DNA of 64,000 nucleotides from a bacterium (GTDB lineage: Bacteria > Patescibacteriota > Patescibacteriia > JAGPKW01), in the NCBI GenBank assembly GCA_021780535.1, contig JAJXYN010000009.1:5631-69630 (forward strand). The letters are read 5' to 3'. Of this stretch, positions 9,466 through 60,760 are shown piece after piece. The first letter of the stretch is position 1. Every line of letters starts with the position of its first letter. Both the position numbers and the translations under genes were made by a program. The notes under the pieces are model-generated. The model searched no databases. It was not told where the DNA came from and saw nothing but the letters and a program-made list of their open reading frames with translations.

Positions 9466-10332
9466 TTAGCTAGGCTTTTGCTTTACACTAAGAACCAACA
9501 TCTCTCTTTCTTTTAAAGATAAGGCACTTTGTAACCGTAATATTTCTTCATCTTTTTTCATAATTTCCCTTCTCATGTCGCTTATCTCTTTTTCTTTTTG
9601 AGAGGAAGAAATAATTATTCTGATAAAATCTATTTTATCATTATAAAATTTCTCTTTTACTAATAAATCTTTAATTATACTATCCCCTATATCTTTTGGG
9701 AAAAGTATTAAATCCCAGAAATTTATTGATTTTTGTGTGACGGCAGACTTTAAATAGAATGTTATTTGATTAATCAGTTGATCAGCATTAATTTTATAAC
9801 TAAATATATTCCCATTATTTTTCATTTCAAATACGTCATTCTTATTTTCTCCCAAATCTCCTAAATCAACACGAATAGAGTCCAAATAAGTAAAAGCTAC
9901 TGATTTGCTCACTCTTATTTTTGATCTAAGATTTTTATTACTTACAACATCTATTAACTTTTCTTTTGACAAACTTAAAATATTAAATATTCTCGTTGCT
10001 AATTGAAATTCCGCTAATTGGTTACTCGCTATCCTATCCTTTATTATTTTAACATTAATGTCATTCAAAAAATTGATTGATTTTCCAATTATCGCCAATA
10101 GACATTTGTAGAATAAAAATGGTTCGAAAAAAACAGCCACTTTATCGTGCATAACTCTTGACGAAATATCATTAAAAAATGAATATGAATTAAATATTGA
10201 TATATTTATAAAACCGTCAGGAGTGGCTGTCACTTCTATTCTTTGGTAGTCATCGGGATCGATCTCTGCCATACTCCCTCCTTTCAAAGAGTTTTTAGGA
10301 ACAAAAATATTAGTTGCTTTATTTAACAACAA
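9466..10332 (-). CDS. Hypothetical protein with C-terminal coiled coil
   Basis: 288-aa ORF. An internal ATG (MAEIDPDDYQ, near 10272) is preceded by AGGAGGGAG and may be the true start. No recognised domain. Confidence 0.55.
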   Translation of the reverse strand: MLLNKATNIFVPKNSLKGGSMAEIDPDDYQRIEVTATPDGFINISIFNSYSFFNDISSRVMHDKVAVFFEPFLFYKCLLAIIGKSINFLNDINVKIIKDRIASNQLAEFQLATRIFNILSLSKEKLIDVVSNKNLRSKIRVSKSVAFTYLDSIRVDLGDLGENKNDVFEMKNNGNIFSYKINADQLINQITFYLKSAVTQKSINFWDLILFPKDIGDSIIKDLLVKEKFYNDKIDFIRIIISSSQKEKEISDMRREIMKKDEEILRLQSALSLKEREMLVLSVKQKPS

Positions 10333-18115: not shown

Positions 18116-18661
18116 TTAACCCTTATTTTTCGAGATTAACCCCATAATGAACCTTACCAATTTTGAAAGATCGTTATAGAATTCTTCTTCATGGATACAC
18201 CCTATAACGTTTTTGGCAGCTTCATCACTCATAAAATCAACAATTTCTCCTGTGCCATAATGATTTTCTGGCTTTCTAATTGTGATTAATATGATGTTTA
18301 GACCATTACAGTCCCTTGATAGAAAAAGATCTTTCCGGCGTGGACTATTATCAAAAGCCGAGAGATCATCTTCATGAATAACTATAATAGATCCTTTTCT
18401 GTCCCCCAATCTAATCTCATCAAAAGACAATACTTCAATGATTTTTTGGTTACCAGGAAAGATAGATGTAAGAGACTGCACAATAAGATACAACTTATCT
18501 TTCGAGCTACCTAATGCTTGTTTTCTTAACTTGGAATTCCTCGGGACCACTAGAACAATCTTGTCTACCATTGAAATATCAAGCTTCTTCATGTATTTTG
18601 CCTCCTGTAAATTCAAAATTGTATTCAGTGTATTTTTATCATATTTTTTATTTTTTTGCAA
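18116..18661 (-). CDS. Hypothetical protein (181 aa) with locally elevated GC
   Basis: ORF tightly coupled to the upstream 760-aa membrane protein gene, whose stop adjoins this start. GC about 35-45% in sampled windows against about 25% background. Confidence 0.5.
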   Translation of the reverse strand: MQKNKKYDKNTLNTILNLQEAKYMKKLDISMVDKIVLVVPRNSKLRKQALGSSKDKLYLIVQSLTSIFPGNQKIIEVLSFDEIRLGDRKGSIIVIHEDDLSAFDNSPRRKDLFLSRDCNGLNIILITIRKPENHYGTGEIVDFMSDEAAKNVIGCIHEEEFYNDLSKLVRFIMGLISKNKG

Positions 18662-27135: not shown

Positions 27136-27182
27136 TTTATTAGATTCAGTATTTATATATAAATATTACCATTTTTCTTATA

Positions 27183-27216
27183 AAAGTAAATAAAAACAGG
27201 GCCCGTTTGGACCCTC
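27183..27216 (-). terminator. Rho-independent terminator for the 27225..28067 gene
   Basis: Minus sense: AGGGUCC-aaac-GGGCCCU, a 7-bp stem with one G-U, then GUUUUUAUUUAC. A second small hairpin CUUUGAG/CUCAAAG overlaps the stop codon. Confidence 0.55.
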
Positions 27217-27224
27217 TTTGAGGT

Positions 27225-28067
27225 TTAACTCTCAAAGTATCTATAAACTAGTGCTTTAGTTCTATGAAGCATATTACTCGCTAGCAGAATGCTTTTTCTC
27301 CTGCTTAGAAAATTGAACTTTGGGTTATATTCTATTATTATAGTTAGTTTACTTTCCCCATATATTCCTTCTTCGAAATTTATTTTCATGATCTGCAACA
27401 GGTGTCTGAATATTTGTATTTCTCTCAGACTCGCCCAATCATAATTTTCATGAACCGAATCAATATTGGTGGTTTTTCTAATAAACTCGTCAATATCAAT
27501 TACTGGCTGAAAATGAATCACTGGAGCAAAATTGCGTCTTAATTCATACACAACATCTTCTGCTTTCACTTGCTCCAACTTTTCATAATCGATCAAATGC
27601 CTTGTGTCTGCAACTAAAATTTGCCTACTTTCACAAGCATCTTTCAATACTTCTAGCGATACAACTGACAAGTTTGGAGAAATTTCGACAAGAGTATTTT
27701 CATACTCATCTTGTACTAAATCAATGAATTCGTGTGATATATGAGTTATTCTTCTTCTTGTGTGATTATCTACAACCATTTGTGCTGCTTTTTCTTTTTT
27801 GAAGAGCAAAAATAATTGCAGAATATCATCAAAAGCCCTACTTGCATCTATTTGCCAAAAATGTTGAAGTTCCGGTCTCCACACATCCTCATAACAAATT
27901 GTATCTTCCTCTAGCCCTGTTATTCCATTTTTCAATGGTAGGGCTTGGAAACCGTCGTATCCAACTCTTTTAGCGTCTTTTCTTGTATCATTAGCAGATC
28001 TCCCAATTTGCATGATGGAAATGTCACTAACGCCATATTCTATGGTTGTTTCCATGTTGCCCTCCAT
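27225..28067 (-). CDS. Hypothetical protein in a GC-elevated island; possibly a xylose-isomerase-like TIM-barrel (sugar phosphate isomerase/epimerase) family member
   Basis: 280 aa, GC about 35-43% against about 25% background. AKRVGYDGFQALPL resembles the (A)KELGFDGVEL start of AP-endonuclease-2/xylose isomerase-like TIM barrels. The second ATG (28055, METT...) has a GGAGGG SD and may be the real start. Family call is low confidence. Confidence 0.5.
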   Translation of the reverse strand: MEGNMETTIEYGVSDISIMQIGRSANDTRKDAKRVGYDGFQALPLKNGITGLEEDTICYEDVWRPELQHFWQIDASRAFDDILQLFLLFKKEKAAQMVVDNHTRRRITHISHEFIDLVQDEYENTLVEISPNLSVVSLEVLKDACESRQILVADTRHLIDYEKLEQVKAEDVVYELRRNFAPVIHFQPVIDIDEFIRKTTNIDSVHENYDWASLREIQIFRHLLQIMKINFEEGIYGESKLTIIIEYNPKFNFLSRRKSILLASNMLHRTKALVYRYFES

Positions 28068-28174
28068 TTGTTTGTAATTTTAAAATAACACATTATTTAT
28101 AAAAAATCAATTATTAAATTGACTTTTATAACTTTTTGTTTTATTATATAAAAAATATTTGAGGAGGTATTTTT

Positions 28175-28762
28175 GTGAAAACTGACATCCTGCTAGTAAT
28201 TTCAAGGTGAGTCTTACCAATTGATATTATTGATAGGCACACGAAAAAAAATTGTACTGCGGCACTTGCCTTTGCAATTCAAAAATATAAATCAGAAAAC
28301 AAGTTCTCATTCTTTACTGTTGGTGGTGTTTTTCAGCCAGACAATATACAAAAAACAGCAATTGCAATTCTTATGAAAAGATTTTTAGAAAGTTGTTGTT
28401 TTGCAACAGCTCGACATTATAAAACTATATTTGAGAACCAATCTCTTGATACATGGCAAAATATTGAAAATTTTAAGAAAATTATTTTGGAAAATAAAAT
28501 TGATGTTGGTAATATATATGTTTTTGCTGATAGCTTTCACTCAATAAGAGTTTCATTGTTATTAAAATATCATGGATTTATAAATATTTTTAAAACACAC
28601 TCTTATATCAAACTTGACCTAAGGGAAAAAATAAAGGAAATCATTCTCATTGTTATGACCTTTATTGATCCTTCTGGCACTAAAAACCCCATTATTAAAC
28701 GGGTACTTGAAAAAGAGAGAAAACTTAGATCTTCTGGCAATACTTATCTTAAATATTCTTAG
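28175..28762 (+). pseudogene. DUF218 (YdcF/SanA/ElyC-like) gene interrupted by a single in-frame TGA 11 codons after a GTG start that has a strong SD
   Basis: GAGGAGG (28161-28167) sits 7 nt upstream of GTG 28175. The frame reads VKTDILLVISR-TGA(28208)-VLPIDIIDRHTKK...FTVGGVF...VFADSFHS... and continues without other stops to 28762. The ORF track only reports the internal-Met fragment 28373..28762. DUF218-like features: ILLV..(G) core and SGG-like TVGG. Confidence 0.5.
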
Positions 28763-28765
28763 GAA

Positions 28766-28800
28766 CAAAAAAGCGACCATAAGGTCGCAATTTTTATTTT
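28766..28800. terminator. Bidirectional rho-independent terminator between the DUF218 gene (+) and the flavodoxin gene (-)
   Basis: AAAAAA-GCGACC-ataa-GGTCGC-AATTTTTATTTT. A-run and T-run on either side. Confidence 0.6.
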
Positions 28801-30145: not shown

Positions 30146-30221
30146 GCCATTATAGCTCAGTTGGTAGAGCGTCTCCCTCGTAAAGAGAAGGTCAAGAGTT
30201 CGATTCTCTTTAATGGCTCCA
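30146..30221 (+). tRNA. tRNA-Thr (anticodon CGU) with genomically encoded CCA
   Basis: Manual fold: acceptor GCCATTA/TAATGGC, D-arm GCTC/GAGC, anticodon stem TCTCC/AGAGA with one 31-39 mismatch, loop CTCGTAA (U33, anticodon CGT, A37), 5-nt variable loop, T-arm AAGAG-TTCGATT-CTCTT, discriminator T, then CCA. Confidence 0.85.
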
Positions 30222-30227
30222 AAAATT

Positions 30228-30253
30228 AAAAATCCAGCTTTTACTGGATTTTT
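30228..30253. terminator. Bidirectional terminator between tRNA-Thr (+) and lysS (-)
   Basis: AAAAATCCAG-ctttta-CTGGATTTTT, a perfect 10-bp stem with A/T runs on both sides. Confidence 0.6.
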
Positions 30254-30256
30254 AAT

Positions 30257-55369: not shown

Positions 55370-55885
55370 TTGACTATGCTTTTCATTAATGTTAATATTT
55401 TCATCATCACTTATCTTAATCAGGAGGGCTACATGAAACATGGTTTTAAGTACACAAAAATTGGTGACATGGAAATTATGAATAATGTTACCATAACAGA
55501 CCCTTTTATTACTATTTCTGCATGGTATGATAAAAATGGTAATAGAATTGGTCTTGGAGAATTAAGTTTAAAAGATTTAAAATTAATTTCAGAAAATTTA
55601 AAATATGATGAATTATTTATTATTGTTAATATAGACGACTCGTTCTGGTGTTTCATATCAGGGAAAAAACCCGAGAGAAACCTCGATCTCGATGAAAATG
55701 TTTCAAAAGATTTTTTGTATAATAATTCTATAATTATAATTGCAAAAAATAAAATGTATATCGTGGATTATTTAAATAGAGAAAACGCAACCACTAATAT
55801 ATATATCAGAAAAGGCTTTGTTGTTAATAAAAATTTCTACGATTTTAAAATATTGCCCGCAAACAGCCTTCCAAACTTGTTTTAA
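55370..55885 (+). CDS. Hypothetical protein; likely true start at ATG 55433 (MKHGFKY…)
   Basis: AGGAGGG at 55422-55428 sits 5 nt before ATG 55433. No known domain. Mildly GC-elevated. Confidence 0.45.
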   Translation: MTMLFINVNIFIITYLNQEGYMKHGFKYTKIGDMEIMNNVTITDPFITISAWYDKNGNRIGLGELSLKDLKLISENLKYDELFIIVNIDDSFWCFISGKKPERNLDLDENVSKDFLYNNSIIIIAKNKMYIVDYLNRENATTNIYIRKGFVVNKNFYDFKILPANSLPNLF

Positions 55886-60290: not shown

Positions 60291-60425
60291 GTTATTTTAA
60301 TATTTCTTCTTTTATATTTTTTTATATTAATTCTATACCAGAACAATTATATACAAAAACTCAAATAAACACTACTTGATTTTTTATATTTTTTATGATA
60401 TTTATTATTATAAGGAGTTTACAGA

Positions 60426-60718
60426 TGACTAAGCATGAGCTAAGGTTTCCCAACCCCGACAACGAGAACGACGTCTATACTGTTGAATGCGACGAACAAC
60501 TGTTCGACAGAATGATGCTCGGGCTAGAGTATTCCCCACTAAATACTGGGGGATTTGGATTTTTTGCCTCATTTACTACTCACTTCTCAAAATATAACGA
60601 GAATGAGGATCTCTATTGGATGGAAGTATCCCTAAAACGAGAAGTGGATTTCCAACCCGGAGAGCTGGAAGTATTTCTCCAAATGCTTCTCCATACTGGA
60701 TGGAGAATCGTAAACTAA
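60426..60718 (+). CDS. Orphan 97-aa acidic protein encoded by a strongly GC-elevated cassette (likely true start ATG 60426; the ORF track gives 60395)
   Basis: TAAGGAG about 9 nt upstream of ATG 60426 (MTKHELRFPNPDNENDVYTVECDEQLFDRMM…). GC about 45-48% in sampled 60-nt windows against about 25% for neighbours. Own terminator. Confidence 0.5.
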
Positions 60719-60733
60719 GTCATTGTCATATAT

Positions 60734-60760
60734 GACCGCGAAACAAAGCGGTCTTTTTTA
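60734..60760 (+). terminator. Rho-independent terminator of the GC-rich cassette
   Basis: GACCGC-gaaacaaa-GCGGTC plus TTTTTTA. Confidence 0.65.

Follow-up and report, generated by a model that had tools for sequence, protein, structure and literature searches.

The locus studied here raises the question of how a gene of raised GC (guanine plus cytosine) content came to lie among the glycosyltransferase genes of an AT-rich genome. It occupies part of a 1.6-kb block between a flavodoxin gene and the glycosyltransferase gene GT2a, within the window, which is the whole 64,000-nucleotide stretch analysed (contig JAJXYN010000009.1 of assembly GCA_021780535.1, positions 5,631 to 69,630). The block carries gene X (27225..28055, minus strand), which encodes a protein of 276 residues and is a candidate metal-dependent (β/α)8-barrel enzyme, and a DUF218-family gene (28175..28762, plus strand). 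The initial annotation, made from the sequence alone, described the whole block as compositionally foreign and as a self-contained, horizontally acquired cassette. Comparison with related loci leads us to a different explanation. We consider it probable that the block is an optional island whose weakly constrained genes fill an intergenic slot of variable content, came from GC-richer members of the group and have been decaying piecemeal.

The window was compared with seven other loci that share the flanking genes GT2b, flavodoxin, GT2a and GT4; a further locus, L001, comes from the same organism (100% identity), and the locus L019 is rearranged. The flank proteins of the seven loci are 70-88% identical to those of the window, with a DNA identity of about 80-83%. 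The slot between the flavodoxin gene and GT2a contains X and DUF218 in the window and in L003, X only in L004 and L009, and DUF218 only in L018. It is empty in L016, L017 and L020, where it spans 80-110 bp and holds one hairpin followed by the GT2a promoter. Close relatives differ in this way by the presence or absence of genes at a fixed site. The empty slots hold no remnant of X, the DUF218 gene is absent outright from L004, L009, L016, L017 and L020, and L018 resembles L003 minus X, excised between two TTGATTTTT repeats. Trees of the flanks group the window, L003, L004 and L018 in a clade with 100% support, with the empty loci L016 and L017 as the sister group, and L020 is weakly placed outside the clade (62-66% support). 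Because the empty L016 and L017 lie outside the X-bearing clade, one gain on the stem lineage is slightly more parsimonious than two independent losses; the island would have entered, or have been retained only in, one sub-clade including this genome.

The arrival in this genome is not recent, because L003, L004 and L009 carry X at the same position with conserved regulatory DNA. The cassette proposed by the initial annotation survives in part: the block is an optional unit, with three relatives empty, but it is neither a recent acquisition nor one functional cassette. The two genes are gained or lost independently, giving loci with X only and with DUF218 only, and they are not neighbours elsewhere in the family. 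Relatives with the same genes, place and composition had been named as the observation that would speak against a foreign origin; the place proved to be the same, but the GC content of X differs between the hosts. It is 38% in L009, where the flanks have 27%, 35% in the window, 27% in L003 and 22% in L004, and it is 25% in the more distant L002.

The borders of the block had been well drawn. Searches with blastn revealed that the DNA similarity to the relatives (about 80-83%) breaks at 27196-27199 and at 28764/28794, and it restarts directly downstream of the X terminator, at the GT2a promoter. In our terminator scan, 4 terminator-like sites turned up where 0.7 would be expected. One is the intrinsic hairpin of X (27198..27215, minus strand; AGGGTCCAAACGGGCCCT followed by a T-run), and a bidirectional hairpin (28773..28788; GCGACCATAAGGTCGC) lies between the convergent DUF218 and flavodoxin genes. 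The X hairpin occurs at the same position in 4/4 X-bearing loci with different stem sequences. The right-hand hairpin is kept in L003 and L018, and the empty-slot loci have an equivalent single hairpin after flavodoxin; judged by this conservation, it is part of the flavodoxin flank and not of the island. The block therefore has hairpins at both ends, as had been stated, but only the left one is its own. An AT-rich region of 12% GC (28068..28174) separates the two genes. It contains a promoter-like TTGACT-17-TATTAT facing DUF218 (28119..28147, plus strand), followed by GAGGAGG at 28161..28167. The promoter-like sequence and ribosome-binding site on the X side, together with the downstream GT2a promoter, are kept in 4/4 X-bearing loci. 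The two-gene island would thus have the terminator of flavodoxin on one side and the GT2a promoter on the other, with X and DUF218 predicted to be transcribed divergently from the shared AT-rich region.

A search of the open reading frames (ORFs) and Pfam matches of the block found no integrase, transposase or other mobility gene, in agreement with the initial annotation. Repeats flanking the block are at chance level only, and no target-site duplication was found. The nearest tRNA gene, tRNA-Thr at 30146..30221, is 1.3 kb off and has a separate variable slot of its own. A 32-nt, 72%-complementary pair (27188-27219/28768-28799) was considered as the terminal inverted repeats of a mobile element and rejected, since it consists of the two terminators (hairpin plus A/T runs), the right one being that of flavodoxin. 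A phage or defence origin was also rejected: tblastn against 50,697 phage records gave no match, and neither did PHROG or PADLOC.

The GC anomaly was ascribed to the full 1.6 kb, and it holds for X only. The window has a mean GC content of 25.3% over 64 kb. The ORF at 27225..28067 (minus strand) reaches 34.8% and tops all 843-bp stretches of the 64 kb (z = 3.4; sliding-window scan), a value attained by 0.1% of sliding windows. The 60-nt windows across X range from 28 to 42% GC, and their median, 33%, exceeds the window-wide mean of 25%, so the elevation is real and the 35-43% given earlier is slightly overstated. The DUF218 half has 26-29% GC and a third-position GC content (GC3) of 0.19-0.21, with no anomaly, and the intergenic stretch has 12%; the block as a whole therefore has 31.3% (z = 2.8). 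Atypical base composition, as expected of an island, is accordingly found in X and not in DUF218, and the GC excess is confined to one gene. The GC3 of X is 0.28-0.29, compared with 0.10-0.19 in the adjoining glycosyltransferase and LysRS genes; 60 ORFs average 0.16. The reported shift to GC-ending codons was confirmed, G-ending and C-ending codons each being 2-3 fold more frequent in X, and GC is raised at all three codon positions in this genome. Translational selection or codon adaptation was rejected as the cause, because ribosomal-protein genes lack an X-type GC3 shift.

The island genes are far more divergent than their surroundings. X shares 31-48% identity among the four syntenic loci that carry it, and the DUF218 copies share 45-66%. 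Comparison of the window with L003, L004 and L009 yields 35-47% for X and 45% for DUF218, while the flanks are 70-88% identical. Since its arrival the island would have been under weak constraint, diverging far faster than its flanks and being lost piecemeal. DUF218 would have been deleted in two relatives and inactivated by a nonsense mutation here, and X deleted in one relative and deprived of four conserved residues in another. In the latter, L004, the family-conserved residues are changed by D154N, H185F, H112N and E60K. The X gene of this genome is intact and keeps all family-conserved residues.

The source of the island may have been a relative with higher GC. Four distant members of the X family (P0005, P0006, P0009 and P0010) have genes of 43-46% GC, and the rest of their contigs has 36-44%. 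On the four contigs long enough to be informative this figure is 43-44%, while L013 offers just 486 flanking bases. Members in such genomes are a plausible source of the extra GC of X. The search for a donor lineage, which the initial annotation had suggested, found distant relatives in 43-44% GC genomes, but the closest X outside this organism, with 52% identity, is that of L002 in a 24% GC genome. The raised GC of X here would reflect an incomplete adjustment to the composition of the host, or the later replacement of the allele by a GC-richer one.

The DUF218 gene is present, as had been proposed, but it is not foreign in composition and its frame is interrupted by a stop codon. It begins with a GTG behind GAGGAGG and has a TGA at codon 12 (28208..28210). 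Over its whole length the frame can be aligned with the 168-aa gene of L003, which is intact, and the residue at codon 12 is Gly in L003 according to the alignment and at the matching position of the translated N-terminus of L018. An alternative code in which TGA means Gly or Trp was rejected, as in-frame TGA is absent from the long genes and only 2/60 ORFs end in this codon. Under the standard genetic code the TGA is a nonsense mutation, which probably makes the gene a pseudogene. The only part still open is a 129-aa C-terminal ORF (28373..28762), which matches PF02698 with 28.5 bits against a gathering cut-off of 27.6. In this it resembles the DUF218 family, from which it differs by the TGA. 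DUF218 is the family of SanA, ElyC and YdcF of E. coli, and SanA and ElyC act at the envelope. A single base change, GGA to TGA, at 28208..28210 would suffice to replace the conserved Gly. A sequencing error at this site is possible, because the only other assembly with the TGA, that of L001, may share the sample.

Gene X encodes a member of a small protein family without a Pfam model. The ORF tool gives 280 residues from 28067, but public gene calls give 276, and the ATG at 28055, which follows GGAGG (28065..28061) at a distance of 5 nt, is probably the true start. X as a non-coding RNA was rejected: Rfam gave no match at gathering thresholds and only sub-threshold ones at E ≤ 1, two of which overlap the terminator hairpins, and the ORF is conserved as protein. 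The protein has no Pfam match even at E ≤ 1, no PADLOC match and no PHROGs match at E ≤ 0.01, and sequence and profile searches against the PDB gave nothing at E < 0.1. A word-indexed search found only six homologues among 5.8 billion proteins, while exhaustive profile searching of 1.84 billion yielded 64 cluster representatives. A search of the literature yielded nothing specific. The sole family member with a named source is a hypothetical protein of a 'Patescibacteria group bacterium'.

The AlphaFold2 model of X, built on a 51-sequence alignment, has a pLDDT (predicted local distance difference test score) of 91.7, a pTM (predicted TM-score) of 0.90 and eight βα units. We are confident in this prediction of a (β/α)8 barrel, and all matches of the model in a Foldseek search of the PDB are TIM barrels. 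The top TM-scores, 0.43-0.50, were obtained with UlaE (3cqj), a C-glycoside deglycosidase and L-rhamnose isomerase. Glu128, His157 and Glu246 are invariant across 51 family members, and Gln41, Pro44, Glu60, Trp63, His112, Asp154, His185 and Pro249 are conserved in ≥90% of them. The conserved acidic and His residues are located at or just past the predicted strand ends, and Glu128, Asp154 (with His157), His185 and Glu246 on strands 5 to 8 form a candidate set of metal ligands. Their order, Glu / Asp-x-x-His / His / Glu, is presumably the xylose-isomerase-like pattern of UlaE, the ketose 3-epimerases and endonuclease IV. The equivalence to known ligands comes from one weak profile alignment with the top PDB profile match, the endonuclease IV homologue APN1 (10nh_A; E = 0.12, not significant), which aligns the DTxH motif, the His and the Glu. 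PF01261 was matched below threshold by 6/51 family members (best E 8.8e-4; P0009 18.2 bits, gathering score 31.1 bits), and X itself does not reach it. The initial description of X as weakly TIM-barrel and xylose-isomerase-like thus agrees with the model, the sub-threshold PF01261 matches and the profile and structure matches. This evidence for kinship is weak, but all of it points in one direction. X may be a metal-dependent TIM-barrel enzyme of the xylose-isomerase-like type, with a sugar or sugar-phosphate isomerase or epimerase as the most likely activity.

Similar to the xylose isomerase-like superfamily (PF01261, AP_endonuc_2; the L-xylulose-5-phosphate 3-epimerase UlaE, ketose 3-epimerases, L-rhamnose isomerase, the C-glycoside deglycosidase DgpB/C), X is predicted to be an eight-stranded barrel of about 270 residues in which strands 5 to 8 end with a conserved Glu, Asp-x-x-His, His and Glu. 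It differs in its sequence identity to the structures, which is 9-13%, in the additional conserved residues Gln41, Pro44, Glu60, Trp63 and His112, and in a long insertion that separates strand 7 from strand 8. Endonuclease IV (Nfo/APN1), which represents this fold in DNA repair, shares with X the DTxH, the His of strand 7 and the Glu of strand 8 in the above alignment, and the His at strand 4 and the acidic residue at strand 3 of X fall at what we take to be metal-ligand positions of that enzyme. However, X has no equivalent of Asp229 and His231 (E. coli numbering), which we take to be the third-zinc ligands of endonuclease IV, and no DNA-repair context was found around X.

The gene neighbours of X are not conserved across the family and include tRNA synthetases and thymidylate-synthesis genes. 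At least three other genomic contexts occur in related AT-rich genomes. X lies between PAP2 (74% identical to that of the window) and a GTPase (63%) in L002, and between Smr and SerRS in L012. As the neighbourhoods vary across the family, any tie of X to glycan synthesis would be local to this clade. In two genomes of 43-44% GC (L010, 8001..8651; L011, 264..1073), the X homologue is found near a cluster of dCMP deaminase, nucleotide kinase, serine hydroxymethyltransferase and ThyX. Such neighbours might point to a role of X related to nucleotides or DNA rather than to glycan synthesis.

Several observations weigh against an optional island that entered from a GC-richer source. The dinucleotide and tetranucleotide signatures of the region are host-typical (dinucleotide δ* z = 0.17; correlation of the tetranucleotide profile with the host z = -0.17), so that the tetranucleotide scan proposed in the initial annotation revealed no foreignness. 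In the neighbour-joining tree, the X genes of AT-rich genomes (window, L002, L009, L003, L004 and L012) group together. If this tree is right, X is older in AT-rich genomes than the clade studied here, and leftover donor GC should have decayed; the clustering would then speak against such a remnant. The GC3 values of the four descendants, 0.38, 0.28, 0.22 and 0.15, misfit a single insertion followed by uniform adjustment to the host, and therefore either the residence times differ, as with allele replacement, or selection is lineage-specific. The direction of change, gain or loss, is a matter of one event against two by parsimony, with L020 weakly placed. As to the enzyme, the Foldseek E-values of the modelled X for xylose-isomerase-like structures are no better than for unrelated TIM barrels, X has no Pfam match, and its neighbourhoods offer no family-wide conserved gene that would support a role in glycan synthesis.

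Homologous recombination through the conserved flanks is the alternative that fares best. In this case the slot would be a hot spot at which old, very divergent alleles of X and of DUF218 are swapped between lineages, and the window and L009 would have received their alleles later, from GC-richer relatives. The distribution of identities fits such replacement: the nearest X (52%) is found in the more distant L002, with flank genes of 63-74% and in another context, whereas the syntenic X of L003 has 43% despite flanks of 77-88%. Synonymous codons were compared only at positions where both loci encode the same amino acid, and against a shuffled baseline. Between the window and L003, the identity above this baseline is 0.01 for X and 0.04 for DUF218, thus at chance, compared with 0.25-0.28 for the flanks. 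Third bases at fourfold-degenerate sites match in 17/55 cases in X plus DUF218 and in 197/340 in the flanks (Fisher p = 2e-4). The GC3 of X spreads from 0.15 to 0.38 between the relatives, and the GT2a tree, which pairs the window with L003 (90%), conflicts with the tree of GT2a plus GT4, which pairs L003 with L018 (95%) and the window with L004 (61%), suggesting recombination within the locus. However, the synonymous-site evidence for a deeper divergence of the island alleles is only suggestive, because the flanks are near saturation: their synonymous sites are themselves 70-90% saturated, the contrast with the island amounts to about 2-2.7 standard deviations, and chance identities in a poorly conserved protein bias it. 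The DUF218 genes of L003 and L018 have a synonymous excess of 0.27, like their flanks, which fits vertical descent. In addition, no donor above 52% identity was found among the 5.8 billion proteins, and the oligonucleotide signature is host-typical. We regard allele replacement as rather unlikely.

The swapping of alleles would have a parallel in the variable central regions of O-antigen and capsule loci. Both have conserved glycosyltransferase flanks, central genes that are present, absent or extremely divergent between close relatives, atypical composition and intergenic breakpoints. The present slot differs in that only one or two genes vary, none of which is a glycosyltransferase, flippase or polymerase, and in that the other members of the X family are encoded elsewhere than in glycan loci. 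Moreover, variable regions of the classical type usually exceed their host genome in AT content, while the island here is GC-richer. A bolder version of allele swapping, which we find doubtful, makes X a sugar-modifying TIM-barrel enzyme whose very old, highly divergent alleles persist at the hot spot because the cell surface is under diversifying selection (e.g. by phage or host attachment), with GC-richer alleles repeatedly imported from other Patescibacteria. If this were true, X would be a new enzyme family tailoring the envelope glycan in organisms with very small genomes.

It is improbable, in our judgement, that X is native and vertically inherited, with a GC content intrinsic to the gene (through its amino-acid composition, a local bias of mutation or GC-biased gene conversion) and a pattern produced by repeated deletion only. 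Such a history would account for the promoter, ribosome-binding site and terminator position kept in all X-bearing loci, for the host-typical signature, and for the deletion in L018, which is directly traceable to short repeats. The GC content of X at the first two codon positions (GC12), 0.38, is inside the range of conserved genes, such as those of the ribosomal proteins L11 and L1 (0.40-0.43). The flavodoxin gene next door also has a raised GC3 (0.19-0.28) in nearly every locus, empty ones included, L004 being the exception with 0.14. Yet the GC3 of X is 0.28 here, 0.15-0.22 in L003 and L004 and 0.13 in L002, and the excess is thus not a stable property of the gene. The empty loci outside the X-bearing clade, the lack of any X remnant in the empty slots and the occurrence of X in at least three other contexts also stand against a native origin.

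A recent self-contained insertion of the whole block into this genome, the earlier interpretation, is very improbable: it draws on the 31% GC of the block (z = 2.8), the hairpins at both ends and the weak 32-nt inverted repeat (72% complementary), but homologous genes with conserved regulatory DNA lie at the same position in L003, L004 and L009, the DUF218 half is compositionally ordinary, the right-hand hairpin belongs to flavodoxin, and the block has no mobility gene, no target-site duplication and a host-typical signature.

The optional, decaying island in a variable slot therefore remains our preferred explanation, and it involves no new type of mobile element or mechanism, only ordinary gene gain and loss. 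The X family is best read as divergent xylose-isomerase-like barrels and the slot as an ordinary hot spot of gain and loss, both of kinds already known. Even the very small, AT-rich genomes of this probably Patescibacteria-like lineage contain fixed slots in which single accessory genes arrive, diverge and disappear, and a patch of raised GC can mark such a slot. With a confident TIM-barrel model and clear candidate catalytic residues, the X family is biochemically testable.

Other parts of the window and of the related loci have compositional outliers and variable slots of their own. ORFs with a GC3 similar to or higher than that of X, apart from the flavodoxin gene, are found at 18116..18661, 55370..55885 and 60395..60718. 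The strongest compositional outlier of the window, beyond X, is the last of these, a listed ORF of 107 residues with 40.7% GC and a GC3 of 0.45. It contains a 97-aa ORF (60426..60718, plus strand) that has an AAGGAG ribosome-binding site to itself and is followed by a strong terminator at about 60733..60757; taken alone, the 97-aa ORF has a G3+C3 of 0.54, and it has no Pfam match and no Rfam match. The ORFs at 55370..55885 (plus strand) and 9466..10332 (minus strand) have a GC3 of 0.27 and 0.24, both without a Pfam match. Within the window, raised GC3 accompanies genes without a match to any known family.

The syntenic locus L004 (CAZHKK010000010.1) is titled 'uncultured Gammaproteobacteria bacterium', yet it is about 80% identical at the DNA level to the window, which looks Patescibacteria-like; a mistake in binning or taxonomy probably explains the title. 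Genes of PF18895 and DUF5671, which we take to be typical of Patescibacteria, adjoin the syntenic locus L003, and a distant GT2a relative, L005, is labelled 'Patescibacteria group bacterium'. Together with the X family member of the same label, they make a Patescibacteria-like host probable.

A second hypervariable slot seems to lie at 18116..18661 (minus strand) of the window, judged by the comparison of the loci. It has 33% GC, a GC3 of 0.32 and no Pfam match, and lies between conserved flanks; the matching slot of L004 (13831..14331) carries a 167-aa ORF without detectable similarity. A further variable slot extends from the LysRS stop codon to the 3' end of tRNA-Thr(CGT) (30146..30221), at 30222..30256 of the window. 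It is empty here and in L016, and it carries one 170-aa ORF in L003 (5337..5937) and three ORFs of 230, 170 and 118 residues in L018 (919..2862).

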